This document shows, in pieces, positions 26,695 to 64,000 of a stretch of 64,000 nucleotides of DNA (positions are counted from its first letter, which is position 1; the number at the start of each line of letters is the position of its first letter). Where the stretch lies: contig CP000875.1 of NCBI GenBank assembly GCA_000018565.1, positions 569,199 to 633,198 of the forward strand, read 5' to 3'. The notes beneath the pieces are model-generated. The model saw nothing but the letters and a program-made list of their open reading frames with translations, ran no database searches and was not told the DNA's origin. Source of the DNA: Herpetosiphon aurantiacus DSM 785 (GTDB lineage: Bacteria; Chloroflexota; Chloroflexia; Chloroflexales; Herpetosiphonaceae). Made by a program: the position numbers and the translations under genes.

Positions 26695-26770
26695 GACTCC
26701 GTAGCTCAGTGGATAGAGCGTTTCCCTGCGGAGGAAAAGGTCGGGCGTTCGACTCGCCCCGGAGTCGCCA
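26695..26770 (+). tRNA. tRNA-Arg (anticodon loop CTGCGGA, anticodon read as GCG), copy 1
   Basis: Cloverleaf: acceptor GACTCCG/CGGAGTC, D-arm GCTC-AGTGGATA-GAGC, anticodon stem TTTCC/GGAAA, T-arm GGGCG-TTCGACT-CGCCC, CCA encoded. Coordinates ±1. Confidence 0.7.
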
Positions 26771-26795
26771 CTTCTTTACAATCAAAACCCCACTA

Positions 26796-26887
26796 GGGAA
26801 GGTGGCAGAGTCCGGTTGAATGTACCGCCCTCGAAATGCGGCAAGGTGTAAAAACCTTCGTGGGTTCGAATCCCACCCTTCCCGCCA
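26796..26887 (+). tRNA. tRNA-Ser (anticodon CGA), class II with long variable arm
   Basis: Acceptor GGGAAGG/CCTTCCC, discriminator G, anticodon loop CTCGAAA, variable stem AAGG/CCTT, T-arm GTGGG-TTCGAAT-CCCAC, CCA encoded; one C·U mismatch at the anticodon-stem closing pair. Confidence 0.65.
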
Positions 26888-26947
26888 CCAACATGGCAGC
26901 ACTCGAAAGTGCTTTTTTTATTTAATGCAGGCTGTATTTCAAAATGC

Positions 26948-27023
26948 GACTCCGTAGCTCAGTGGATAGAGCGTTTCCCTGCGGAGGAAAAGGTCGGGCG
27001 TTCGACTCGCCCCGGAGTCGCCA
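26948..27023 (+). tRNA. tRNA-Arg (anticodon GCG as read), copy 2
   Basis: Identical in sequence to copy 1 over the tRNA body; followed by hairpin+T-run terminator (caccctagggtg ttttttt). Confidence 0.7.
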
Positions 27024-39668: not shown

Positions 39669-41183
39669 CTATACTCTCACGCGTTGGGCCGGTAGCTCAG
39701 TGGTAGAGCATCGGACTTTTAATCCGCTGGTCGTGGGTTCGATCCCCACCCGGCTCACCAAGCGGGATTGTTGCAAACTTCCTACGAGTTCCAGAAATGG
39801 TTCTCGTGGTTGGTAGGCGACAATCCCTTTTTTTGTGCCCCAAACGGCTGCAATGAGTGATTGTAAGGCTACGCGCTTCTCGGCTAATGCCCTCTTCTGC
39901 TTAAATGTCCAACTAATTGATTCTAATAAATCTAAGGCTTGCTCCATGTTAAAGGATGCAGCTGGTTTTTGGCGTGGTGCTTGGGCTTGAGCCAACAACG
40001 CTGATTTGCGCTGCTCATATTCATCAGCCCGGATGTGATCATTGAGAAACAGGCGCTTGAGTGCGGCAAGCTCGGCTTCAATGTTGGGGGCTTCGGGGGC
40101 TGGTTGTTGGTGTGCGTCCCACTGTTGCTGAGCAACCCGAAGAATATCGCGCTTCCAATCGCTGGGAAACGCCAAGGCATCAAGCACGGCAATCATATGC
40201 TGATCAAGCACATCGTTGCGCACCATGGCCATGGGGCATTGGTTGTAGCGGTGTTGGCTGCACTCATAGTACACAACGTTGGTTGTGCGCTTGTAGTGTT
40301 GCCACATGCGGCTGCCACATTGCTCACAATACAAAATTTCACTGAGCAGCCCACGGCCTTGGCTCACAGGAGTCCAGCCGCGCTTTTGGCCGCGCCGATC
40401 AAGCAAAACTTGTACCGCGTCCCATGTTTGTTGATCAATCAGCGCTTCATGTTGGCCAGCATAGGTTTGGCCTTTGTAGCTCACCTTGCCAATATAGGCT
40501 TGGTTGCGTAGCATCGATGCAACGTTGTCTTTGGTGTAGGGAACATAGCGCCCTTGTTGAGTGTTCCAAACTCGCGCACCACGTTGGTTCATGGCATCGG
40601 CGACGGTGCTGAAGCTATACAGTCCTGTGGCATAGAGTGTAAACAGCATGCGTTGATGCTCGGCATCGGCTGAAGGAACCAGCACCCCGTGCTCATTGCG
40701 TTGGTAGCCCGTTGGCACGGGGCCAGGTAATTTGCCTGATTCCGCAGCTGCACGGCGGGCACGTGCAACCCGTTCGCCTGTTAGTCGGCTATAGAGTTCG
40801 GCCCCAGCTCCTAACATCGTCAGATTGAAGCGGCCAGCAGCGGTATCCATCTCAATTGGCTCGGTAATTGAAATGAGTTGAATCCCCAGCGCGTGGAATT
40901 CATCAACCACCCGCAGCTGGAGCGAAGTGTTACGGGCGCAGCGGTCGAGCTTCCAAACTAACACAACATCAAAGCATCGTGGTTTCCGAGCGGCATCTTC
41001 ACGAAGCTGCATAAACGCGGGACGATCAGCATTGCGGCCACTCTTGCCAGCATCTTGATAGACCTGCACAACGTGCCAACCATGGCGTTGGGCATAGGCC
41101 TGACAATCACGCTCTTGGCTTGCAAGGCTGCTGTTTTCAGCTTGTTCACGGGTGGAAACCCGTGTATAGATAACGGCTCGCAT
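39669..41183 (-). CDS. Large serine recombinase (resolvase/invertase-domain site-specific integrase)
   Basis: N-terminal RAVIYTRVSTREQ catalytic Ser motif, recombinase domain, and zinc ribbon (CEQCGSRMW…YYECSQHRYNQCP). The C-terminal ~25 codons are the antisense of tRNA-Lys. Confidence 0.85.
   Translation of the reverse strand: MRAVIYTRVSTREQAENSSLASQERDCQAYAQRHGWHVVQVYQDAGKSGRNADRPAFMQLREDAARKPRCFDVVLVWKLDRCARNTSLQLRVVDEFHALGIQLISITEPIEMDTAAGRFNLTMLGAGAELYSRLTGERVARARRAAAESGKLPGPVPTGYQRNEHGVLVPSADAEHQRMLFTLYATGLYSFSTVADAMNQRGARVWNTQQGRYVPYTKDNVASMLRNQAYIGKVSYKGQTYAGQHEALIDQQTWDAVQVLLDRRGQKRGWTPVSQGRGLLSEILYCEQCGSRMWQHYKRTTNVVYYECSQHRYNQCPMAMVRNDVLDQHMIAVLDALAFPSDWKRDILRVAQQQWDAHQQPAPEAPNIEAELAALKRLFLNDHIRADEYEQRKSALLAQAQAPRQKPAASFNMEQALDLLESISWTFKQKRALAEKRVALQSLIAAVWGTKKGIVAYQPREPFLELVGSLQQSRLVSRVGIEPTTSGLKVRCSTTELPAQRVRV
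39686..39760 (+). tRNA. tRNA-Lys (anticodon TTT)
   Basis: Acceptor GGGCCGG/CCGGCTC (one G·U), D-arm GCTC-AGTGGTA-GAGC, anticodon loop CTTTTAA, T-arm GTGGG-TTCGATC-CCCAC, CCA encoded. Confidence 0.9.
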
Positions 41184-44565: not shown

Positions 44566-45014
44566 GACGTTCGCGTAGATACGCTAAGATTTGCTTTACC
44601 AAAGAATCTTTTTCTTCAACTAGCAGGATTAATAAAAGGAGACAGGCTGTTCCAGTAAAAAAAACTCGTTGATCTAACATTTCAAAAAGGGTGGATGACA
44701 TAAATATTATGAGGCACGCCCAAGTTCCATTGTTTATCTTTTTCATCTCTTATCCCTATACATAGGCAAACGTATGAGGGAGTATACCATTTTTTATCGT
44801 CCCCGAACATGAAAATTTGATGACAACGAATCTAGGTAGTGCCTTTGTGGCGCTAGAAACAATACCTAGCATAGTAATGCAGTTAATGAAATCCATACAT
44901 TTATGGGAGTACCATGAAGGAGGTAGTTAAAATCCCCCTCGATGAGAAGTACATTCTGTGATATGCTCTGTACTCGATAGTACCATTCACTCTTGATGCT
45001 TTGTGGAGGTTAGC

Positions 45015-46079
45015 ATGGTTGGCGCAGTCATTGATCTATTCTGTGGAGTTGGTGGGCTAACCCACGGGCTTATTCTTGAAGGTTTTGGCGTACTGGCAGG
45101 GATTGATAACGATCCTTCTTGTAAGTATGCCTATGAGCAAAATAATAGAACTCGTTTTATTGAAAAGTCTATTACTGAAGTTGATGGCAGAGAGTTAAAT
45201 GCCCTCTATCCCAATAATCAACATAAAATCTTAGTAGGCTGTGCCCCATGCCAAGATTTTTCTCAATATACGAAGAAGAGTCGTACTGGAACAAAGTGGC
45301 AATTACTCACAGAATTTTCGCGCCTTATTAGAGAGATCGAGCCTGATATTATATCAATGGAAAATGTTCCTGAGGTTCGAACATTCAATAGAGGGGAAGT
45401 TTTTAACAATTTTATTCAAGCACTTGAACAATTAGGGTATCACGTTTCGCATAGCGTGGTGCATTGTCCTGATTATGGAATTCCGCAGCAACGTGACCGA
45501 CTAGTCTTATTTGCTGCTAAACAGGGCGTTATTAAGATTATACCCCCAACCCACACTCCTGAGAACTATCGAACTGTACGTGAAGTTATTGGTTCTCTGC
45601 CACCAATTACTGCTGGCGGACACTGGGAGGGTGATAGCATGCATGCAGCCAGCAGACTAGAAGATATAAACCTTCGACGTATTCAGCATTCTGTGCCTGG
45701 TGGTACTTGGGCCGATTGGCCGGAAGAATTGATTGCAGAATGTCATAAAAAGGAAAGCGGTGAGAGTTATGGGAGCGTCTATGGTCGAATGGAATGGGAT
45801 AAAGTAGCACCTACCATCACTACACAATGCAATGGGTATGGTAATGGTCGCTTTGGTCATCCAGAGCAGGATCGCGCTATTTCGCTCCGTGAGGCTGCCT
45901 TACTTCAGACATTTCCGCGAAGTTATCAATTTGCCCCTGAAGGCCAACTGAAATTTAAGACAGTTAGTCGTCAAATAGGGAATGCTGTTCCGGTCGCACT
46001 AGGTCGTGTTATTGCAAAAAGTATTAAGCGTTTTTTGGAGGGTTTACATGAGCGACAGCGGGTACGAATTATCATTTAG
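45015..46079 (+). CDS. DNA cytosine-5 methyltransferase
   Basis: Motif I DLFCGVGG, motif IV GCAPCQDFS, motif VI ENV, motif VIII QQRDRLVLF, motif X GNAVPV; GGAGG RBS before ATG 45015. Confidence 0.9.
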   Translation: MVGAVIDLFCGVGGLTHGLILEGFGVLAGIDNDPSCKYAYEQNNRTRFIEKSITEVDGRELNALYPNNQHKILVGCAPCQDFSQYTKKSRTGTKWQLLTEFSRLIREIEPDIISMENVPEVRTFNRGEVFNNFIQALEQLGYHVSHSVVHCPDYGIPQQRDRLVLFAAKQGVIKIIPPTHTPENYRTVREVIGSLPPITAGGHWEGDSMHAASRLEDINLRRIQHSVPGGTWADWPEELIAECHKKESGESYGSVYGRMEWDKVAPTITTQCNGYGNGRFGHPEQDRAISLREAALLQTFPRSYQFAPEGQLKFKTVSRQIGNAVPVALGRVIAKSIKRFLEGLHERQRVRIII

Positions 46080-47877
46080 TCTTAATACATTGAATCACTT
46101 AAGCGAAGGTCTTTATAGTAATATTCCTGCGGTTTTATCTGAATTAGTTGCTAATGCTTGGGATGCCGATGCAACTGAGGTATCTATTAATATACGACAA
46201 GATGAAATAGTCATTCAAGATAATGGTATAGGAATGTCAATTGAGGATGCTAATACTAAGTTCTTACGAATTGGGCATCAAAAGAGAGAAGATTCAGCCA
46301 ACACTATAAGTGGACGGCATGTTATGGGCAGGAAAGGGATCGGTATACTGGCAATATTTGGTATAGCCAATATTGCTGAGGTTTATTCTTGTAAGGATGG
46401 AGTACCCCATGGATTTATAATTCGTAAAGGCGATATAGAAAGAGGGATAAGTAGCGATGTAACGTTGTATAGGCCATCACCGGTTCCTCAAGATGATTTA
46501 TCTATTGAATCAGGAACAAAGATTATATTACGAGAAATAAAATCTTCTATTGTAAATGCGGAGAAAACTCTAAGAACTGATCTTGCCCGGAGATTTACAA
46601 TTATTAATAATAATTGTAATTTTTCTGTAATTATTAATAATATACCAATTAGTGATAATGATCGTGATTATTTAAATAAAGTACAATTTCTTTGGTATCT
46701 TGGTGAAGAAAGTAGTAAATATGCTGATTTTTTTACTAAGCTAAAGAAATCATTTGAAATTACGAATCTAGTAGATGGAATGTCAGGTATAACTGTTAAG
46801 GGTTGGATTGGTACTGTATATCGTCCAAGTAATATTCCAACGAGCCACCGTACCATCTCTATTTTTGCTCATGGTAAAATGATTCAAGAAGATATTTTAA
46901 TAGATATAACTGATGCGGGTGTATATCGACAATATATCATTGGTGAAATTGAAGCAGATTTTATGGATAGCGATGATGAAGATGACATTATTACCAGTAA
47001 TAGACAAAGAATAAAGCAAACTGATCCTAGATATCTCAAGCTACTACAGTATGTCAAGGCAGATATTATGCGAGTTATTGCATCAATGTGGACTAACTTG
47101 CGAAAGGAATACCCATCTAAGCCAAAAAAAGAGGAAGTTAATGATAGTTCATCATCAAAAGATGCCAATTCTTCTGAACAAGAGAATACAAATGCTAGTA
47201 GTGATTCATCAAACACTACCGATGCTAGTAGTGATTCATCAAACACTACCGATGCTAGTAGTGAGACGAATGATGGTGATGTGGAAGATAATTCTTTTTT
47301 TGATGATGATATTCCTGAACCTAGCCCTCCACCTAAACAAGAAATTACTACTGCATTTAGAGAGATGAAGAATCTTGTTAAGAATAGTAATATTCCCGAT
47401 CAAATGAAAAATATTATTTTATATGATATTCAACAAGCAGCCTATGCTTATAAAGGAACATCATTTAAAGCTTGTATTGTAATGTTGGGAGCTATTCTAG
47501 AAGGTGTTATGCTTGGAACAATCCAGAGGACGGATGTACTAGAATACTTGATTACTTTACAGACAGTACCAAAGCCATTAAGTGATTTAGGCCCTAGAAA
47601 TCCTAAATTTGCTGATCGTACAGTGCTAGCCCAGTATATAGGGACTACCTTTTCATTTCAGGACTGTAAGGAAATAATAGAGCTATGTGTACAAGGTACT
47701 AATAAACTAGGTGTCGATATACTTCAAACGGTTAGAAATTCTATACATCCAGGTTCAGTATTAAAAGATATGAAACAACTAGCAAGGTTCAATCATCAAA
47801 GCGCTGTTGGTTACATTGCCAAACTACATGAAATTATTAATTTAGTGATTCTATGGAATCCTCCATCTATTCCATAG
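46048..47877 (+). CDS. GHKL (MORC/MutL-like, HATPase_c_3-type) ATPase with low-complexity repeat linker and unassigned C-terminal domain
   Basis: Bergerat-fold motifs: N-box SELVANAWDADA, G1 box IQDNGIGM, G2 box GRKGIGILAIFG. Ser/Asp/Thr-rich tandem repeat (SSDSSNTTDA x2). About 230 aa C-terminal domain without recognisable nuclease motifs. Start overlaps the MTase stop by 32 nt (translational coupling). Confidence 0.75.
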   Translation: MSDSGYELSFSLNTLNHLSEGLYSNIPAVLSELVANAWDADATEVSINIRQDEIVIQDNGIGMSIEDANTKFLRIGHQKREDSANTISGRHVMGRKGIGILAIFGIANIAEVYSCKDGVPHGFIIRKGDIERGISSDVTLYRPSPVPQDDLSIESGTKIILREIKSSIVNAEKTLRTDLARRFTIINNNCNFSVIINNIPISDNDRDYLNKVQFLWYLGEESSKYADFFTKLKKSFEITNLVDGMSGITVKGWIGTVYRPSNIPTSHRTISIFAHGKMIQEDILIDITDAGVYRQYIIGEIEADFMDSDDEDDIITSNRQRIKQTDPRYLKLLQYVKADIMRVIASMWTNLRKEYPSKPKKEEVNDSSSSKDANSSEQENTNASSDSSNTTDASSDSSNTTDASSETNDGDVEDNSFFDDDIPEPSPPPKQEITTAFREMKNLVKNSNIPDQMKNIILYDIQQAAYAYKGTSFKACIVMLGAILEGVMLGTIQRTDVLEYLITLQTVPKPLSDLGPRNPKFADRTVLAQYIGTTFSFQDCKEIIELCVQGTNKLGVDILQTVRNSIHPGSVLKDMKQLARFNHQSAVGYIAKLHEIINLVILWNPPSIP

Positions 47878-52473: not shown

Positions 52474-52929
52474 ATGACACAACCATTCACCACTATCAAA
52501 CCCAAGCTTGAAGCCCCGTTCCCCATGGATATTATTGAGATAAAGCCCACTGTTGTCACGAAGGATAAGACCCGCGCTTTAGCTATTGCCTATGCCGAAG
52601 TCCGAGCCTATCAGGACAGGCTTGATGCTGTGGTTGGTGGTGAATGGGCTGTGACCTATCGCCCCTTAGGGCCAGGTGCGGTTATTTGCCAGCTGACCCT
52701 AGTTGGCATCACTCGTGAAGATGTTGGGGAAGCCGAGCAAACTGACCCGAATAAAGCGACGGTTGCCGTTGCCCAAGCGTTCAAACGCGCCTGCTCGGCA
52801 TTCGGGCTGGGCCGCTATCTGTACAGCATGCCAAAAGTATGGGCCGAATACGATCAGGAAAAAAAGTGCTTTGTGTACCCTGATCGCATTATTGCCCATA
52901 TGTATAAGCAGATTGGGATAAAGGTATGA
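52474..52929 (+). CDS. Rad52/Sak-family single-strand annealing protein
   Basis: …ATVAVAQAFKRACSAFGLGRYLY… matches the conserved Rad52/22 core (KRA..FGiGRYLY). Confidence 0.65.
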   Translation: MTQPFTTIKPKLEAPFPMDIIEIKPTVVTKDKTRALAIAYAEVRAYQDRLDAVVGGEWAVTYRPLGPGAVICQLTLVGITREDVGEAEQTDPNKATVAVAQAFKRACSAFGLGRYLYSMPKVWAEYDQEKKCFVYPDRIIAHMYKQIGIKV

Positions 52930-53604: not shown

Positions 53605-54542
53605 AGGTTAGCTCTTTGACCCCTGCGGGCTTTAGTGATGAAACCATCATTAAAGAATGGAATGATGTACTGCATGGGGTTCGGCTAATGCAGCGTTACG
53701 ATCCTAGTTATTATGAACAGATTCGCGATGAACCATTGACGTTGGTAAAGGGTAAGTCTTGTTTTATCAGAATGGCATATCTGGTTGAAGATCTTGTTTC
53801 CACAACCATGAATTTTCAAGATTATATGGAGTGGAGACAAGAGGACTTCGATCCCTATGATGATGCCGATGATATTGCCAATGATGATCCTGCCCTCTCG
53901 GAAAGCTATAGTCTTGATCTGCGATTTGAGATTGCCGGGCAATGGCTTGATGAAACCCCTTTAGCCGTTTTTGGTTTACCGATTCATGCTGGTGAAGCTG
54001 GAGATATGTTTCATCTTGCAATGTGGCTTACGCGGTATCCATTTCATACTACACCCTACGATGTTATGCGGTTCGATGGTGATCGCTATTTCGTGAAAGA
54101 TAAAGAAATTTTTCAAGCGCTGAAAACATTTGACCCTTTGCCTGAGCATATTCATATCCATGGATTAATTCAAGAATTAAATCGCAAAAAGATCTATGGG
54201 TTTGAGCTTGGAACCTTGATTCAATATGCATTGCGCATTACTGGTGATGTGTTTGCCGATGTTTCTATGGCAGAACTGGAAGTTGGTGGATGGGATGACG
54301 GCATAGATTGGGCTAACCCTGATATGGTCGCCTCAGTCCAAGATCGTCAACGTCGAGCCGATGCGCTGTGCAGCCAATTCCATGACTTTGCAGCATGGCT
54401 TGATCGCAACAATGAATATGCGATCGATATTTTGCTCAATATTTATGGAGCCGCTGCGGTCGTACTGGCTAATGATACCCAACGCCCAGCAACCTTAATG
54501 GAGTTAGTCAATGCCAACGATGAAGTACCCCAGACCATATAA
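53544..54542 (+). CDS. Hypothetical protein (332 aa) within Ubl-conjugation cassette
   Basis: No recognisable motif. Confidence 0.35.
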   Translation: MPALSRIARKRRSRSAIGLVKVSSLTPAGFSDETIIKEWNDVLHGVRLMQRYDPSYYEQIRDEPLTLVKGKSCFIRMAYLVEDLVSTTMNFQDYMEWRQEDFDPYDDADDIANDDPALSESYSLDLRFEIAGQWLDETPLAVFGLPIHAGEAGDMFHLAMWLTRYPFHTTPYDVMRFDGDRYFVKDKEIFQALKTFDPLPEHIHIHGLIQELNRKKIYGFELGTLIQYALRITGDVFADVSMAELEVGGWDDGIDWANPDMVASVQDRQRRADALCSQFHDFAAWLDRNNEYAIDILLNIYGAAAVVLANDTQRPATLMELVNANDEVPQTI

Positions 54543-55191
54543 GCGAGAAATCGTGTTTGATAAAAGCCCGAAGCTTCAGCTAGATTTCTTCGATAATGCG
54601 GTGATTATGACCCGCCGTGAGCCATCTGGTTGGTCATCATACCCAGTCGATGTTAGTGAGGTTGCAAAGGTATTAAGCGGTATCCCCCAATCATCGGGAT
54701 TGCTCCCTCAAAATACCTTAGGCTATGGAAGCTATAAAGGCAGTTCCTTCTACTGCATGTATATTCCACCAAAATCCATCACGATAGAGCTTGCCAATAA
54801 TGATCGGTTAACGATTCCCATTCCACCGCTCGTTTGGCGTGGTTGGAAACAAAACTATCAGATTTGGGCATTAGCCACTGAAGCCTATCCTTTAGCGTCA
54901 ACACCCTTATTTATGGCTCCCTTCCCTAATGTGTACCCGAATGCGATGATTTGCTGGGGTGATAGTGATGATCGTTTGCCTGCTGGCCCAAGCACGATGC
55001 AGGCAATGCTTGACCTCTTTTTGATAGGCAGTCGTTTCAATACCCATTTGGTTGGTGGTAAGAGCATGCGTTCATCTGGCAATATTATCAATCTGTACCA
55101 TAGGATTAAAGGTAAGGCTATGTATCCACTTCATGATTTATGTGCTACTGATTTAGTTCTTGAAAACGTGTTGGAAGGGGGATTTGCATGA
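54511..55191 (+). CDS. E2-like (UBC-fold) ubiquitin-conjugating enzyme homolog
   Basis: FPNVYPNAMICWG aligns with the eukaryotic E2 HPNIYSNGSIC(LDIL) active-site motif (Asn and catalytic Cys at identical spacing). Confidence 0.55.
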   Translation: MPTMKYPRPYKREIVFDKSPKLQLDFFDNAVIMTRREPSGWSSYPVDVSEVAKVLSGIPQSSGLLPQNTLGYGSYKGSSFYCMYIPPKSITIELANNDRLTIPIPPLVWRGWKQNYQIWALATEAYPLASTPLFMAPFPNVYPNAMICWGDSDDRLPAGPSTMQAMLDLFLIGSRFNTHLVGGKSMRSSGNIINLYHRIKGKAMYPLHDLCATDLVLENVLEGGFA

Positions 55192-55841
55192 TCCCAAACC
55201 TTCACCGCTACCATATTGTTACTGAAGCGGAACCATATCCCCCTAATCAGCCAGGCTTGACGTGGCTGATCGCAGCGAACGGCATCTTCAAAAGTGGCTG
55301 CGATCGCCATCAGCGCTTGATTATTCAAGTCTCCGAGCAGCGCATTGATCTACCTGGCATGGTCGCGATTATGCCGATGATTCACTGGTTCAATTATCCC
55401 AAACGCTTACCATCTGCTTGGTTATCAATGCTGCTTGCAGATGCCCAAAAGGCTTCTATTATCACCAATGGAGTAGCACGACCAATCGAGAAACAATACT
55501 TTGTAGTTAATAAAGATGATCGGCTGAAGCTGATTATTGCTCCCCAACAAGCTAGTGCCTTGAGGGTGCATTATCAAATGCCGTCGGCACCAATCTTTGT
55601 TGATATTCATAGCCATCATGGTATGCCTGCTTACTTTTCGGCCACCGATGATGCTGATGATACAGGCCTCTCAATTTCATGTGTGATCGGCAACATCTAT
55701 AGCAACCCTGAAATCATTTGTCGATTAAACATCTATGGCCAACATCAAGTTGTGCCTATTACCACCATTTTTGATGGTTGTGGCCCTTTTGCCGATGTGG
55801 GACAACGAGAGGGGGATCGCTATGCAAATGCTCAGTTTTGA
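55188..55841 (+). CDS. JAB/JAMM (MPN+) metalloprotease
   Basis: IHSHHGMPAYFSATDDADD fits the JAMM motif HxHx7Sx2D. Confidence 0.65.
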   Translation: MIPNLHRYHIVTEAEPYPPNQPGLTWLIAANGIFKSGCDRHQRLIIQVSEQRIDLPGMVAIMPMIHWFNYPKRLPSAWLSMLLADAQKASIITNGVARPIEKQYFVVNKDDRLKLIIAPQQASALRVHYQMPSAPIFVDIHSHHGMPAYFSATDDADDTGLSISCVIGNIYSNPEIICRLNIYGQHQVVPITTIFDGCGPFADVGQREGDRYANAQF

Positions 55842-56700
55842 GCCTATTGCCCCGTTTGTAATAGGAAACCAGTCACGCTTTCATATCACTATTGTTGGGG
55901 CTGGTGGTACTGGCTCTTATATCGTGCAAACTGTGGCTCGGTTAATGGCGCATGCCAATGAGAAGGGTTCCCCCAAAATCGATGTAACGCTGGTTGATGG
56001 CGATACAATTGAAGCAAAAAATATTGGTCGTCAACTCTTTGCCCCAGCCGAAATAGGCCGAAATAAAGCACAATCATTGGCTACTCGGTTCAACCAAGCC
56101 CTAGGCCTCAAAATACAAGCTATACCCACAATGATCGATCAATATTCGCTTCCGCATGTTGATCGCTATCAATGGCATCAATCGGCTGCGCTTGATAAGC
56201 GGCCCTACTCAATTGTTGTGGGCGCTGTCGATAATGCCGAAGCACGCAAGGTTATTCATGATGGTTTAGCTAAATATGTCTTTAACCTATGGATTGATAG
56301 TGGCAACCACGAGCATGGGGGACAAGTGCTTGTAGGCAACTGCGTAGCACCGCATAAGCTAAAAGGAAGCTTTGCCCTTGAGGGAATGGTGCAATCATTA
56401 CCAGCACCATCGTTGATGGCACCATCGCTGATAACACCACCAGAGCCACTGCCTGAATCGCAGCAGCTTGATTGTGCAACCGCGATGGAGAATAACCGCC
56501 AATCCTTACTTATTAATCAGCAAATGGCCTCAATTGTTGGCCAATACTTACATCAAATCATCTTTACCCAACGCTTGACCACTTTTGAAACAATTGTCGA
56601 TATGAGCACACTCACGATGCGAAGCACCCCAATCACGGTTTCTAATGTGGCTCAATGTCTTGGGGTAACGTCTGCATTTTTAAAAGGAATTAACGCATGA
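55822..56700 (+). CDS. E1-like ThiF/MoeB-family adenylyltransferase
   Basis: Rossmann ITIVGAGGTGSY; DGDTIEAKNIGRQLF (ThiF D-x-D-x-x-E-x-x-N-x-x-RQ); GAVDNAEAR. Confidence 0.7.
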   Translation: MQMLSFEPIAPFVIGNQSRFHITIVGAGGTGSYIVQTVARLMAHANEKGSPKIDVTLVDGDTIEAKNIGRQLFAPAEIGRNKAQSLATRFNQALGLKIQAIPTMIDQYSLPHVDRYQWHQSAALDKRPYSIVVGAVDNAEARKVIHDGLAKYVFNLWIDSGNHEHGGQVLVGNCVAPHKLKGSFALEGMVQSLPAPSLMAPSLITPPEPLPESQQLDCATAMENNRQSLLINQQMASIVGQYLHQIIFTQRLTTFETIVDMSTLTMRSTPITVSNVAQCLGVTSAFLKGINA

Positions 56701-57617
56701 CCACACAACTAACCTTATTCGATTACAACGCGCTGGATACTGAAACCCGCGTTATCGTTCAGCAAAAAGCGGTCGAAATTCGGGATCGAATGCGCAGCGC
56801 TGCGCAGGCCGTCATCGAGATTGGTGAGCGGCTGATCGATGTGAAAGAACGCTTGGGCCATGGCAAGTTTGGGCAATGGCTTGATGCAGAATTCCAATGG
56901 TCAGCTGATACCGCCCGTAACTATATGAATGTTGCTGAGCGGTTTGGTCAAAATCCGAAAATTTCGGAATTTGCACCATCGGCCTTATATTTGTTGGCAG
57001 CCCCATCAACACCAGAGGATGCCAGAACTGAAGCGATCAATCTAGCCGAGCAGGGCCAAAAGATTACCCATGCAGTAGCAAAGCAAATTGTAACCACCCA
57101 CAAAGAGCAAGCAGCGCCAAAGCCCAAGCCAGCAGCTGCACCAGCAGTGCCAAAACCTGAACCTAAGCTTGAGATCCCCCCAATGCTCATCATTGGCGAT
57201 AAGACGGTTCCTAGTGCTGAATTCACAGGCACGCCAACACCAAACACAATTGATGATAGTGAGAGCGAAGAGCTAGCCAGCCAGCCACTGGTTGAAACGC
57301 CATCTGAACAACCAGACTTACCACCAATGCTTACCATTGGCCAACCAAGCCCAGCGGCTGCCGTTGAAATCGATACGAAGCCCTTGGCTTATGCAATCGT
57401 GGTGCAGGAGTTGGCGCGGCAAATGGTTACACTTGCCAACCAGCGCGTGAAGTTATTAGAAGATCAAATTGAGGCCCAAGGGAAAGAGGTTATTCAACCA
57501 TTCATTGATACAGAGCAGATGGCTGAAGCAGCTGCATCATTTATTGGAACGCCTGCATTCAAGTCACAAGCTGGCTTGTTGGCCTTTGGGGTGAAGGTTA
57601 ACCTTCGGGATTTCTAA
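56697..57617 (+). CDS. Hypothetical protein with N-terminal DUF3102-like helical domain and Pro/Ala-rich linker with internal PPML(I/T)IG repeats
   Basis: N-terminal YNALDTETRVIVQQKAVEIRDRMRSAAQAVIEIGERLIDVKERL; contains the second copy of the 23-bp palindrome in its coding sequence. Confidence 0.4.
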   Translation: MTTQLTLFDYNALDTETRVIVQQKAVEIRDRMRSAAQAVIEIGERLIDVKERLGHGKFGQWLDAEFQWSADTARNYMNVAERFGQNPKISEFAPSALYLLAAPSTPEDARTEAINLAEQGQKITHAVAKQIVTTHKEQAAPKPKPAAAPAVPKPEPKLEIPPMLIIGDKTVPSAEFTGTPTPNTIDDSESEELASQPLVETPSEQPDLPPMLTIGQPSPAAAVEIDTKPLAYAIVVQELARQMVTLANQRVKLLEDQIEAQGKEVIQPFIDTEQMAEAAASFIGTPAFKSQAGLLAFGVKVNLRDF

Positions 57618-57620
57618 ACA

Positions 57621-57656
57621 AGCCTGCCTGCTGTCTGAAACAGCAGGCAGGCTTGA
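57621..57656 (+). terminator. Strong hairpin at end of long + operon
   Basis: caagcctgcctgctgt-ctgaa-acagcaggcaggcttg perfect 16-bp stem; weak T-tract. Confidence 0.45.
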
Positions 57657-57700
57657 CATTTGTGCTAGGATTTAAAAGATTTACATATTTGGGTATTTCT

Positions 57701-58891
57701 ATGATGCAACCACTTACAAATATCAGTAAAGCTGTAGATAGGATTATTGAATCACTTCCACAATTACAGCCTGTTTTGGAATCAACGACTTATAGACTTG
57801 GTGATGACTCTATTATCATTCGAAATAAGTATCCAGAATATCGAAACCAATTAAAATTACATAAAGATTTACTATCTAATATAATATTGGAAGAGTTAGA
57901 TAATAAGGAATTTAATTTTATTATAGATGAATCTGATATTAATTTTATTGAATTCGATAGAATTTCTTCAAAAAGATCAGTATCTAAAAATATAAATCAT
58001 AATTTTAATATAGAAAATAATATAAATTTAAATTTCTATACTTCTCAATCAATAGATGTAATAGATTCTGGTATATCACAATATTTAGATGATTTTAAAA
58101 AAAGAATGGTGTGGCCTCACTACAAAATAATAAGAAAAAAAGAAAATTCATCAAAAATAGTTTACGAAATATCATTCATTTCGATTGGTGAATTGGGGTT
58201 TATCACAGATATGACGGGAAAGATCTATTTAAGGAAAATAGGCGGAGGTGGATTTAACATCAAATATATAAATCCATTCCATATAAAAGATAATATAGAT
58301 AAGTTAGTTGAATTTCACCTCGAGGAATTTGATAAAATAAAGAAATGGCATAACTTTGAAATAGATATTCTTGAATCATCTATAGATTCTTCAAGAAATA
58401 TTATAGTTATTTCTAGAGAGATATTTGAATATATTGAATATAGCTTAAAAGAAGATGAAATAATTGAAGATAATGATTTATATAGAATTAATAGAAATAA
58501 TGAATATTACGTAAACCTTGATAGAATAAAAGAACTATCAAAAATTCAATCAAAAGATTTTGATATTACTAAACTAGTGAAATTATGTTTAGAATTAAAT
58601 ATATCATTTTCAAATGAGTGTTATTTTGCAGCTATATTTATTCTTAGGGCTATTATAGATCATATACCACCAATATTTGGACATATTAATTTTGATAATG
58701 TAGTAAGTAACTATAAAGGTAATTCTGGCAAAAAAATATTAAATCATCTTTTGGTTACGTTAAAAAATACTGCTCATATAAATATCCATAAACCTATTTC
58801 TAGGAAAGAAATTATTCCAAATCGACAACAAGTTGATTTTAAAAGTGAGATAGACTTTCTATTATCAGAGATAATACAAGAACTGTCATAG
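57701..58891 (+). CDS. Hypothetical protein encoded by an extremely AT-rich orphan gene (about 397 aa)
   Basis: Asn/Ile/Lys-rich composition; GC far below flanking DNA; no recognisable catalytic motif. Confidence 0.45.
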   Translation: MMQPLTNISKAVDRIIESLPQLQPVLESTTYRLGDDSIIIRNKYPEYRNQLKLHKDLLSNIILEELDNKEFNFIIDESDINFIEFDRISSKRSVSKNINHNFNIENNINLNFYTSQSIDVIDSGISQYLDDFKKRMVWPHYKIIRKKENSSKIVYEISFISIGELGFITDMTGKIYLRKIGGGGFNIKYINPFHIKDNIDKLVEFHLEEFDKIKKWHNFEIDILESSIDSSRNIIVISREIFEYIEYSLKEDEIIEDNDLYRINRNNEYYVNLDRIKELSKIQSKDFDITKLVKLCLELNISFSNECYFAAIFILRAIIDHIPPIFGHINFDNVVSNYKGNSGKKILNHLLVTLKNTAHINIHKPISRKEIIPNRQQVDFKSEIDFLLSEIIQELS

Positions 58892-60314: not shown

Positions 60315-60360
60315 GTACAATATTATAATGCGTATAACCTACATACTTATAATACTGTTA

Positions 60361-60415
60361 AACCCTCATCCTCCTCTCTTCCATAAGCGACCCCTAGTGG
60401 GTCGTTTGTGGTTTT
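60361..60415 (+). ncRNA. Conserved CT-rich hairpin element (copy 2)
   Basis: aaaccctcatcctcctctcttccataagcg + GACCC-ctagt-GGGTC hairpin + tttgtggtttt; see copy 1 at 20349-20413. Confidence 0.35.
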
Positions 60416-61105
60416 CGGAATACGCGACAGTAGTATAAATGTTCTAATTTGGGTGATCTGAAGATTCTTGATTATCGATCTTTGTTTCTAGAGTTAGTTT
60501 TTTCTTGTAATATGTGGTGTTCTCGGCTTAGCACAATTTATTTACTTGGCATAACAAAATGGTATCGTGATGTAAGTATATGTTTGGCAACAAAAGATCA
60601 ACTGGAAGTCATATGATTATAGTTATGAATACACTATTTGAAGATTTTTTTAGACACTTCATTCTATTATACGATTTTAACTCTTCTTTTTTTGATTTCA
60701 TATGTCATTTGAATCATTTTGATTGGATATCAGCTAGTCTTTATCTTTTCTAATGCTAATTTAAGACTGTCATTATAAGGCTTTCTAATGATAAATTAAC
60801 CATAATATCAAATTGAAACCATTACTTATATAAAGCCTAGGATGGAATTTTGCGAACAGACAATATGCTATACTGTTCTAGATTAGGCCCCCTCCCGCTA
60901 GGAAGCATCGAGGGGGCTTCTCTTATGATGTATGTTGTGTACCACATTTTATCCTCAATTCCTCTACGGGCATCAAAATGTGATGTACAAGTAAAGGTTT
61001 CTGTGCTGTCCTTCATAACCTTCCTTTTTCTACATGCATGGCTTTGGCCGCATTAACGTGGGTTACATCAGCAGTCCTATCGATTCTTGATATGGAGGGT
61101 TCTTT

Positions 61106-64000
61106 ATGTATGCTCAGCGTGTGGCTAATTTTGTTCAGGAATATCAACGATATATCAATAATTCAGCGAATGAAGAGGAGCTTCGGAGCGGGTTTTATCT
61201 GGCTGCTACTAATGCTTTGGGTATTCCAAATTTTACCCTAGAACGAGGCCGGCAGGATATCCGCCGGAATCGTGTCATTCTAGAGTTTAAGAATAAAGGC
61301 CTATTTCGAGGTCAATCCACCAGCCTTAAATTTAAAGAGGCGCAGGATCAACTCATTAATAGGTATATCCCTCAGCAATCGCTTCGTGATGGGAGAAGGC
61401 CCTCAGATTATATTGGCGTGTGTTTTGATGGAGAACATCTTGCCTTTACCTTTGTTGAACCAGATCAAACGGTTCGGGTCACGAAACTATTGCCATTTGA
61501 TGAACATAGTGCTGGGGCTTTGGTTATGGCGCTTGACGTTGATGATCGGCGTGAACTAACCCCACAAAATGTTATTGATGATTTTGGTCCATCTTCCTTT
61601 ATTGCGCGACAGACCCTACAAGCATTATGGCATCACTTAAATGTATCTCTTGATATGGGTGTCAAGCGGATACACATGCTCTTTACCGAATGGAAAAGTC
61701 TTTTCCAACAAGGAACAAGCATTGGTACACGAGGGCGACAGAAACTTCAGGCGTATCTTCAGTCAGTGGGTTTACCTGAATCTGCTGATATCACCCGTCT
61801 CCTTTTTGTCCTTCATACCTATCATGCACTTTTTTTCAAATTGCTTGCGGCTGAGGTTGTGCTGACAAATGCTATTATCCCGGGTATGACCCAAACCGAT
61901 TTTTGTTTTTCTACCGCAGGACTTCCTGATCGATCCCTTATTAAGTTGTTGGTAGATGATATCGAGGAATCAAAAGTATTTCGCCGTGTCAACATCCTCA
62001 ATTTTGTTGAGGGGACTTTTTTTACCTGGTATACACATGAGGCTCCCGCAGGATTGATTGAAGCAATTCGACAGATTATGCAGCGGCTTAACCTTTATCG
62101 GCTAAGCGATCTTCAACTGGAACGAACACGCGATATTGTGAAGTATGTTTACGAGCAAATAGTTCCTGAACCGCTTCGTCATAGTCTGGGGGAATATTTC
62201 ACGCCAGAATGGCTGGTTGAGTTTACTCTTGATCGTGTTGGATATCAAGGCTCCCAAATTTTGGATCAGAAGATTCTCGATCCATGCTGCGGCTCAGGCA
62301 ATTTCCTTATTCATGCTATTGAGCGCTATAAACAGGCGGCTCACGCCCAAGGATGGGATGATTCTGCTATTCTTCATGGCATTACCAATCACATCTTTGG
62401 ATTTGACCTAAACCCTCTTGCCATGTTAACTGCACGGGTTAACTATCTTATTGCGATTTCGGATCTCTTGAAAACTTCATCTGCGGTTGAAATCCCTGTA
62501 TATCAAGCCGATGCCGTTTACATTCCAAAGCCCCGACCTGATGATCCGACTATTTATCGCTATGATATTTCAACCCGTCTAACAGGGTGTCCTATACTCG
62601 CCCTAGATATCCCTGTATCCCTAATTCACAAACAACATTTGTTTGCACGAGTGCTTGAGGAGATGGAAGAGTCGATAAATGAGCACCAGCATACCTCTGC
62701 ATTTATTACACATCTTAAGAGAAATCCTGAATTCTGTAGAGTAGAGGATCATCTTGACTGGATTCCATATCTGGAAAAAATGTTTAATGACATCCAGTTT
62801 CTTGAATCACGCTCATGGAATCGGATATGGTGTCGGATTGCGCGAAATTACTTTGCCTCCGTTGCAATAGGGTCTTGCGATATCGTTGCTGGTAATCCAC
62901 CCTGGGTTCGTTGGTCTGAATTACCCCAGCTTTATGCGGAGAAAATTAAACCGATTTGTGATGAATATGGAATTTTCTCTGATGAACGTTTTTTTGGGGG
63001 GAATGAGCTTGATATATCGGGGATGATAACCTATACCGTTATTGACCAGTGGTTGGATGAGGGTGGTAAGCTGGCCTTTATTCTTCCACAAAATCACCTG
63101 CAATCTCAGTCATCTGGTGGATTTCGTCAGTTTCAGATTCGCGAAACCCCGTTAGAGGTTTTACAGGTTGATGATTTTAGCGAGGTTAAACCATTCCGCC
63201 GCGTAGGTAATCGTCCCGCAGTGATAACCATCTACAAGGGGCGAGCTACAACCTATCCTGTTCCCTATAACATATGGAAACGTATAACCCCAACAACTAT
63301 CTCTGAAAATGTAAGCTATGCGACTGCGGCTGAGAATCTTCTATCGATACCTCATGAAGCTTATGCATTAGAGGACGCAGGAAAACGTTGGAGTATTCTT
63401 CCGCTAGGACGATTTCCTCTCCTTTCCATGTTGAATGGTGAGGACAGGTCAATTGAAGGCCGTAAGGGTATTGTTACCGATTTGAATGGGGCATACTTTA
63501 TTCGAATTCTTGGCCATGGTTATCGGACTGGAACTCTTCGTTTTAAAACTTCTCCAGATCAGGGTCAAAAACCTGTACCAGAGCGAACATATGAGATTGA
63601 GGCTGACCTTGTATATCCTCTGATAAAAGGGGCAAAAAATGTTCAACCATTTTATGCCACCACAAGCGAGTTAGCCGTAATTGTTCCTAATAAGGGGATT
63701 AATTCATCCTCTATGCCATCCATGTCTCGACTGACTTATCAGGGGTATCCACTAGCAGCACGTTATTTCCAGTCTCTGAATCGCGATGTGCTCATTGATG
63801 GTGTTGGCCTACTCGATCAACGATCAACTTGGCGAACCCGAATGCGGCCATTTTTGGAAAAACAATATGCCGATAATCTTGCCGATATACCCTTTTATGC
63901 AATCTATAACGTAGGAGACTATACATTTGCTCCCTATAAGGTTGTATGGGCAGAAATGTCTGGAAGTCTTAAGGCGGCAGTGATTTCTGATGGTCTTGTA
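61106..64000 (+). CDS. Type IIG-like fused restriction endonuclease / N6-adenine DNA methyltransferase (MmeI/BREX-PglX-like), 3' end beyond window
   Basis: N-terminal PD-(D/E)xK-like motif (RQDIRRNRVILEFKNKG); MTase motif I LDPCCGSGNFL and motif IV GNPPW (gamma-class N6A MTase); GGAGGG RBS; ORF open to window end (965 codons). Confidence 0.7.
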   Translation, partial: MYAQRVANFVQEYQRYINNSANEEELRSGFYLAATNALGIPNFTLERGRQDIRRNRVILEFKNKGLFRGQSTSLKFKEAQDQLINRYIPQQSLRDGRRPSDYIGVCFDGEHLAFTFVEPDQTVRVTKLLPFDEHSAGALVMALDVDDRRELTPQNVIDDFGPSSFIARQTLQALWHHLNVSLDMGVKRIHMLFTEWKSLFQQGTSIGTRGRQKLQAYLQSVGLPESADITRLLFVLHTYHALFFKLLAAEVVLTNAIIPGMTQTDFCFSTAGLPDRSLIKLLVDDIEESKVFRRVNILNFVEGTFFTWYTHEAPAGLIEAIRQIMQRLNLYRLSDLQLERTRDIVKYVYEQIVPEPLRHSLGEYFTPEWLVEFTLDRVGYQGSQILDQKILDPCCGSGNFLIHAIERYKQAAHAQGWDDSAILHGITNHIFGFDLNPLAMLTARVNYLIAISDLLKTSSAVEIPVYQADAVYIPKPRPDDPTIYRYDISTRLTGCPILALDIPVSLIHKQHLFARVLEEMEESINEHQHTSAFITHLKRNPEFCRVEDHLDWIPYLEKMFNDIQFLESRSWNRIWCRIARNYFASVAIGSCDIVAGNPPWVRWSELPQLYAEKIKPICDEYGIFSDERFFGGNELDISGMITYTVIDQWLDEGGKLAFILPQNHLQSQSSGGFRQFQIRETPLEVLQVDDFSEVKPFRRVGNRPAVITIYKGRATTYPVPYNIWKRITPTTISENVSYATAAENLLSIPHEAYALEDAGKRWSILPLGRFPLLSMLNGEDRSIEGRKGIVTDLNGAYFIRILGHGYRTGTLRFKTSPDQGQKPVPERTYEIEADLVYPLIKGAKNVQPFYATTSELAVIVPNKGINSSSMPSMSRLTYQGYPLAARYFQSLNRDVLIDGVGLLDQRSTWRTRMRPFLEKQYADNLADIPFYAIYNVGDYTFAPYKVVWAEMSGSLKAAVISDGLV

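Follow-up and report, generated by a model that had tools for sequence, protein, structure and literature searches.

A probable solitary Type IIG restriction-modification gene near the right-hand end of a low-GC island in Herpetosiphon aurantiacus DSM 785

What kind of enzyme is encoded by the long open reading frame (ORF) that runs off the right-hand end of a 64,000-nucleotide stretch of Herpetosiphon aurantiacus DSM 785 DNA (contig CP000875.1, positions 569,199 to 633,198; this whole stretch is called the window), and does it act with partners or alone? An earlier note on this DNA described the ORF (61106-64000) as a partial, Type IIG-like fusion of an endonuclease and a methyltransferase at the edge of a genomic island, and named the MmeI family or the PglX-like methylases of BREX and DISARM systems as its probable kin. 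We conclude that the ORF is very probably a solitary, single-chain Type IIG restriction-modification (RM) enzyme, in which a nuclease, a γ-class methyltransferase and a target-recognition domain (TRD) follow one another (R~γM~TRD). It is an uncharacterized member of a large and already catalogued family, and an ordinary kind of anti-phage gene.

The frame starts with an ATG at 61106 on the forward strand and stays open for 965 codons up to base 64000, where the window ends. The nearest in-frame stop codon on the 5′ side is a TGA at 61088, and 61106 is therefore the first possible start of the ORF. At a stop-codon frequency of ~5%, it is ruled out that a frame of 965 codons stays open by chance. 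The gene is partial only in the sense that the window cuts it. Among 5.8 billion proteins searched, P0001 (ABX03192.1 / WP_012188100.1 / UniProt A9AVB4, Herpetosiphon), of 1093 residues, matches the ORF at 100% identity, and this protein is encoded on six public contigs. Contigs L001 and L002, which share 12,895 bases with the window with 0 mismatches, show that the ORF runs on to codon 1094, which is a stop, so that the gene ends 387 nucleotides past the window (L001:13282). Downstream extension, which had been proposed as a check on the reading, thus revealed neither a premature stop nor another disruption: the gene is intact, with 1093 codons. The public annotation of A9AVB4 / ABX03192.1 is only ‘N-6 DNA methylase’, a label that understates a complete RM enzyme.

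Type IIG enzymes have a γ methyltransferase, a recognition domain of their own and, at the N-terminus, a PD-(D/E)xK cleavage domain of ~200 amino acids (PMC3874165; PMC3185434), and they are present in ~40% of sequenced genomes (PMC3874165). The Herpetosiphon protein has this composition. Its γ methyltransferase lies in one chain with the nuclease, the cleavage domain is N-terminal and carries the D, E and K residues, and the C-terminal recognition domain matches its counterpart in M.BseCI and CamA. The alignment of the full protein to the PADLOC model PDLC03630 (‘REase_MTase_IIG’) runs from end to end, with 1603 bits over residues 1-1093 and model positions 3-1100 of 1100, and the fragment encoded in the window scores 1426 bits against the same model. 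Two Pfam families are recognized in the chain, N6_Mtase at residues 341-450 (41 bits; cut-off 20.4) and Eco57I at residues 428-684 (34 bits; cut-off 25.3). No S-subunit gene was found in the flanks examined. The family is large: at E ≤ 1e-30 it takes in at least 1249 clusters of 50% identity, each counted by its representative. Genomes yielded at least 594 relatives, and 21 plasmids carry full-length copies; IMG/VR yielded no relative.

An alignment of 40 full-length homologs (28-58% identity) and an AlphaFold2 model built on it delimit the domains (Table 1). The full-length model has a predicted local distance difference test (pLDDT) score of 89.4 and a predicted template-modeling score (pTM) of 0.87, and a separate N-terminal model has a pLDDT of 91.9. 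The D, E and K of the nuclease were the residues on which the earlier note had made its fusion reading depend. D51, E60 and K62, in the string D51-x8-E60-F-K62 (61256-61291), are invariant in all 40 homologs, as is E23, although the nuclease domain averages only 37% identity. DrdV, BpuSI and HsdR have the nuclease domains that come nearest to the modeled fold. Between the nuclease and the methyltransferase lies a helical connector, and a connector of this kind has likewise been described for BpuSI (PMC3185434).

Both methyltransferase motifs were found where the earlier note had placed them. Motif I, DPCCGSGNF (residues 392-400; 62279-62305), precedes motif IV, NPPW (residues 597-600; 62894-62905), within GNPPW (residues 596-600; 62891-62905), which is the γ-class order. 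Motif I (DPxxGSG) is the SAM-binding motif and motif IV the catalytic one, and both are intact; D392, P393, G396, S397 and F400 of the former and N597-P-P-W600 of the latter are invariant in the 40 homologs. Between the two motifs lies a poorly conserved insertion of ~110 residues (465-575). With the invariant nuclease residues, the two motifs and the end-to-end family match, the fusion of a PD-(D/E)xK nuclease with a γ N6-adenine methyltransferase is well borne out. The recognition domain, for which the earlier note had asked to search, is of the CamA/M.BseCI kind: CamA and M.BseCI are the top Foldseek matches of the full model (E ~2e-18, template-modeling (TM) score normalized to the target ~0.70), and a family profile run against solved structures finds CamA at 2e-13 and M.BseCI at 7e-12 (profile positions 583-1045). 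Past the window, the AlphaFold2 model places what remains of the recognition domain, followed by two long helices at the C-terminus (residues 1033-1086).

Partners of the enzyme, if there were any, had been expected beyond the window. None was found in the 5.6 kb downstream, and none is conserved in a set of 80 homolog loci from bacterial and archaeal genomes, in which all neighboring ORFs were clustered. The commonest neighbor family was present at only 10 of these 80 loci, and a crude motif scan found an ORF with amino-methyltransferase motifs within 5 kb at four of them. No methyltransferase gene flanks the Herpetosiphon gene. The genes called over 10 kb upstream, the larger ORFs back to ~39.7 kb and the 5.6 kb downstream include neither a helicase gene nor PglZ, BrxC, BrxL or Drm genes, and no gene of the latter four kinds is conserved across the 80 loci. 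The lack of a conserved neighbor, together with the rarity of methyltransferase-like ORFs nearby, implies that the enzyme is solitary.

The homolog loci also yielded observations of their own. At 7-10 of the 80 loci, a conserved pair of genes on the same strand flanks the Type IIG gene (for example L031:8495-11327, L042, L050, L067, L072, L078, L086). The pair encodes a 376-residue protein without a family match and a 565-residue P-loop protein with weak HerA/mad8-like matches, and in L067 and L086 it is followed by a 410-residue methyltransferase with an SPPY motif. Possibly the pair is an accessory module, so far undescribed, of one subfamily. At four of the 80 loci (L046:6928-9735, L055, L076, L081), a SNF2 helicase of ~930 residues follows the Type IIG homolog at a distance of at most ~200 nucleotides; it matches PADLOC BrxHI with 358 bits and also matches DrmD and HmaA. 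Homolog P0017 (55% identity, 1232 residues) contains TIR domains (PF01582, PF13676) and is apparently a fusion of a Type IIG enzyme with a TIR module.

What is established on Type IIG enzymes suggests how this one would work (PMC3874165, PMC2582602, PMC3185434). The recognition domain and the methyltransferase would together recognize a short specific site, rotate one adenine out of the helix and transfer to it the methyl group of S-adenosylmethionine (SAM), by which the host DNA would be marked as self. In incoming DNA that lacks this methylation, each molecule would use its one nuclease site to cut at a fixed distance on one side (downstream) of the recognition site. Double-strand cleavage would then need two molecules, the second probably bound at another site. 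MmeI-type (Type IIL) enzymes need no companion methyltransferase for host protection (PMC2582602). As the Herpetosiphon gene has no such companion, protection would have to rest on the enzyme’s own methylation, either of a lone strand, as in the MmeI type, or, at a symmetric site, of both strands. C-terminal helices have been proposed to mediate dimerization in MmeI-type enzymes (PMC3874165), and the two long C-terminal helices predicted here would fit this proposal.

Could the protein instead serve a BREX, DISARM or MADS system as a PglX-like methyltransferase, which would not itself cleave and whose partners would lie outside the window? Its motif X-I region gives weak local matches to MAD2, BREX-2 PglX and PADLOC PglX models, Foldseek lists PglX/BrxX structures at E ~1e-15, and the BrxH/DrmD-like helicase mentioned above follows the gene at four of the 80 loci. 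However, the scores lie far under the curated NCBIfam cut-offs (MAD2, 41 bits against 720; BREX-2 PglX, 34 against 400; BREX-6, 22 against 900; BREX-1, 15 against 500), no PADLOC PglX model scores above 33 bits, and the structural matches to PglX reach a TM of only 0.36-0.41. The end-to-end Type IIG match, the invariant catalytic residues of the nuclease and the lack of PglZ, BrxC, BrxL or Drm genes, both in the scanned flanks and as a conserved feature of the homolog loci, also stand against a PglX-like protein. This alternative is extremely improbable and close to refuted, and with it the suggestion of a BREX or DISARM methylase falls. An orphan or regulatory methyltransferase, in which the nuclease domain has decayed or been repurposed so that methylation occurs without restriction, is unlikely, if less so. 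It would agree with the database label, with the shorter relatives that apparently lack the nuclease and with the failure to find experimental cleavage data in the literature. Against it, the invariance of E23, D51, E60 and K62 in so divergent a domain argues for selection on catalysis, the confidently modeled nuclease fold resembles that of active Type IIG/IIL nucleases, and the gene is located among defense genes of a mobile island. Several points do weigh against a solitary, active Type IIG enzyme. Some relatives of ~800 residues seem to lack the nuclease part, and methyltransferase-only derivatives therefore exist; residues 47-49, in the loop just before D51, are the sole low-confidence part of the AlphaFold2 model; the public contigs end 5.6 kb downstream, so that more distant partners are not strictly excluded; and a literature search found no biochemical or methylome data on the Herpetosiphon protein or a close homolog. 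Activity, recognition sequence, cleavage distance and the methylated strand or strands are all things that we infer.

The genes that follow raise one more alternative. The 5.6 kb past the Type IIG gene contain three genes, each of them on the opposite strand (Table 1). The first two encode a GmrSD_N/GmrSD_C protein of 568 residues (PADLOC HEC-06, 605 bits; 33% GC) and an OLD-like protein of 708 residues (38.5% GC), which has AAA_15/AAA_21 and OLD-type TOPRIM domains and matches AriA, AriAB, GajA and Old. The Type IIG enzyme, the GmrSD/HEC-06 protein and the OLD-like ATPase-TOPRIM protein might form one coupled system rather than three independent defenses. The three lie side by side and share a low GC content (42% for the Type IIG gene, against about 50% in the host), and a GmrSD-like ORF lies near a Type IIG homolog at two other loci. 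However, the GmrSD and OLD-like genes are convergent with the Type IIG gene, the GmrSD association recurs at only two of the 80 loci and the OLD-like gene at none (0/80), and all three come from families with known stand-alone action. A coupled system is thus very improbable, and a solitary Type IIG enzyme is the preferred reading.

The Type IIG gene is cargo of a low-GC mobile island that starts at a tRNA-Lys gene and a serine recombinase gene (~39.7 kb). GC content falls from 50.3% to 44.7% at tRNA-Lys(ttt) (39686-39760), the left end of the island, and the tRNA-Lys/serine recombinase site is probably the left end of an integrated element of ~29 kb. On the right-hand side, the third downstream gene shares 90.7% DNA identity with L087:2520-4199 (559 codons for amino acids), ending exactly at the stop codon. 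L087 is a 78.8-kb IMG/VR contig from a related but different genome, in which CheY-like genes replace the defense cluster. This gene is all that L001 and L087 have in common, and their divergence marks a breakpoint at the right-hand end of the island. From the rise in GC to 57.5% and the match to L087, this end is probably just beyond the OLD-like gene, ~4 kb past the window. To place the Type IIG gene at the island edge was thus approximately right, with the correction that two more low-GC defense genes follow before the sequence common to another Herpetosiphon-like genome begins. The tRNA-Lys end has no k-mer of 10 or more in common with the right-hand junction, which is uninformative for a serine recombinase. 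The terminal 42-mer of L001, searched for exactly, had no match in metagenome contigs.

Table 1. Features of the Type IIG gene and its surroundings (window positions unless a public contig is named).
Feature	Position	Strand	Basis or remark
Large serine recombinase (Resolvase, Recombinase, Zn_ribbon_recom)	39669-41183	-	3′ end overlaps tRNA-Lys
C5-cytosine methyltransferase	45003-46079		Pfam DNA_methylase, 267 bits
Restriction endonuclease, 623 aa, HATPase_c_3 domain	46006-47877		PADLOC REase_II PDLC03485, 1324 bits; overlaps C5 methyltransferase
Erf-like single-stranded DNA-annealing protein	52474-52929		
PRTRC-like cassette	54511-57617		Prok-E2_D 54511-55191; Prok-JAB 55188-55841; ThiF/E1-like 55735-56700; DUF3102 56697-57617
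AT-rich orphan gene, 24.4% GC	57653-58891 (public contigs: 57701-58891)		396-412 aa
AT-rich intergenic stretch, non-coding, 34.9% GC	60315-61105	.	Base composition, repeat, Rfam and promoter scans
Shine-Dalgarno-like GGAGGG	61094-61099	+	6 nucleotides 5′ of ATG 61106; read directly from sequence
Probable Type IIG RM gene, codons 1-965 of 1093 (ABX03192.1 / WP_012188100.1)	61106-64000	+	ORF, contig and family-model evidence
PD-(D/E)xK nuclease domain, residues ~1-165, α/β	61106-61600	+	AlphaFold2 model, alignment
Candidate catalytic residues of the nuclease	E23 61172-61174; D51 61256-61258; E60 61283-61285; K62 61289-61291	+	
All-helical connector, residues ~166-340	61601-62125	+	AlphaFold2 secondary structure
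γ-class N6-adenine methyltransferase, Rossmann-type, residues ~341-700	62126-63205	+	Pfam, motifs, model
Target-recognition domain, β-rich, residues ~701-1030 (window holds 701-965)	63206-64000	+	Foldseek, profile, AlphaFold2
GmrSD-type nuclease gene and OLD-like gene	L001:13358-17274 (window-equivalent ~64463-68379)	opposite to Type IIG gene	
Next gene, 3′ part only	L001:17594-18922	opposite to Type IIG gene	57.5% GC, no family match

Within the island, the C5-cytosine methyltransferase and the restriction endonuclease form a complete Type II RM pair (45003-47877; GC 34-36%) 15 kb upstream of the Type IIG gene. The island also carries an IstB-like ATPase, helix-turn-helix proteins and, with the AT-rich orphan, a Replic_Relax protein. 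The right-hand end is a small defense cluster composed of the Type IIG, GmrSD/HEC-06 and OLD-like ATPase genes. Elsewhere in the window, three tRNA genes (Arg-gcg, Ser-cga, Arg-gcg) lie within ~330 bases (26695-27023), beside a stretch of lower GC at 25-27 kb (41-46%).

An AT-rich non-coding stretch and an AT-rich orphan gene do precede the Type IIG gene, and their base composition bears out what had been noticed there. The non-coding stretch contains no Rfam match and no significant repeats, and promoter-like sites are not more frequent in it than in shuffled sequence. The orphan is without a Pfam, PADLOC or PHROG match; among 5.8 billion sequences, a segment of ~130 residues is common only to 23 short hypothetical proteins. 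With no recognizable function, the orphan is not countable as defense cargo on present evidence. The idea of stacked defense cargo, which the earlier note had built on these upstream elements, therefore stands by virtue of the downstream GmrSD/HEC-06 and OLD-like genes and not of the orphan.

Literature on H. aurantiacus in connection with Type IIG enzymes or methylomes gave irrelevant mentions only, and the supplements of Blow et al. (2016) contain no Herpetosiphon entry. HauII (TGGCCA, 11/9) is listed in the Biopython REBASE table, but no paper on it was found, and no source that ties it to the Type IIG gene or confirms its organism. By naming convention HauII may come from H. aurantiacus, and it might correspond to the Type IIG enzyme, which is a lead only. 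The importance of the present assignment lies mostly in annotation and will not surprise a specialist, but the family could supply new specificities for restriction-enzyme work.

How does the enzyme compare with named systems? From the REBASE-derived Type IIG family that PDLC03630 represents it shows no detectable difference, and its homologs are of the same length class (~1050-1100 residues). Type ISP and Type I-like enzymes were rejected as kin: the chain has no helicase or ATPase Pfam match and the model has no translocase domain. RM.BpuSI (PDB 3S1S; 878 residues) has a recognition domain like that of a Type I S subunit and pairs with two extra methyltransferases, M1 and M2, whereas none is present here; the whole-chain TM is 0.25-0.30 and there is no significant sequence match. 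More generally, Eco57I and BpuSI need one or two companion methyltransferases, unlike the Herpetosiphon enzyme. The Thermus enzymes TaqII, TspGWI, TspDTI and Tth111II (~1100 residues) resemble it in size, in the order of nuclease, helical region, methyltransferase and TRD, and in being solitary (PMC5587805, PMC3874165). A close kinship with TaqII/TspGWI was rejected, as tblastn on Thermus plasmids aligns only residues ~293-466 at ~34% identity. These matches cover 11-15% of the protein, in the motif X-I region of the methyltransferase, and are not confirmed as TaqII-family genes. The Thermus family has NPPY near residue 473 (PMC3968444), in contrast to NPPW at residue 597 here.

The likeness to MmeI and DrdV is one of organization. 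The order of PD-ExK nuclease, helical connector, γ methyltransferase, recognition domain and C-terminal helices is the same, and so are the single nuclease site per chain and the lack of a companion methyltransferase (PMC2582602, PMC3874165), a mark of the MmeI type that is seen here as genomic organization. Membership of the MmeI family by sequence, one of the two kinships first proposed, did not hold. MmeI_Mtase gives only a sub-threshold match (19.6 bits over 28 residues; cut-off 27), and MmeI_N, MmeI_hel, MmeI_TRD and MmeI_C are absent here at E ≤ 0.01; none of the 120 homologs listed carries these domains either. The profile match to DrdV is marginal (E 1e-3, methyltransferase part only), with a whole-chain TM of 0.33-0.37. 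Unlike MmeI and DrdV, the Herpetosiphon protein has the ~110 extra residues between motifs I and IV, and its recognition module is nearer to that of CamA and M.BseCI. Its methyltransferase and recognition half (residues ~340-1045) finds its best structural and profile match in M.BseCI, CamA and M.TaqI-type proteins, which are methyltransferases only (~580 residues), without the 340 residues of nuclease and connector that the Herpetosiphon protein has. As a TaqI/BseCI/CamA-type recognition module is combined with the absence of a companion methyltransferase in a family of this size, we tentatively raise the possibility, which we hold to be less than even, that ‘lone’ Type IIG enzymes, which protect the host by their own methylation alone, have in this family a second lineage whose sequence sets it apart from MmeI. 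Were this so, the family could be, beside MmeI, one more scaffold whose specificity can be read and re-programmed.

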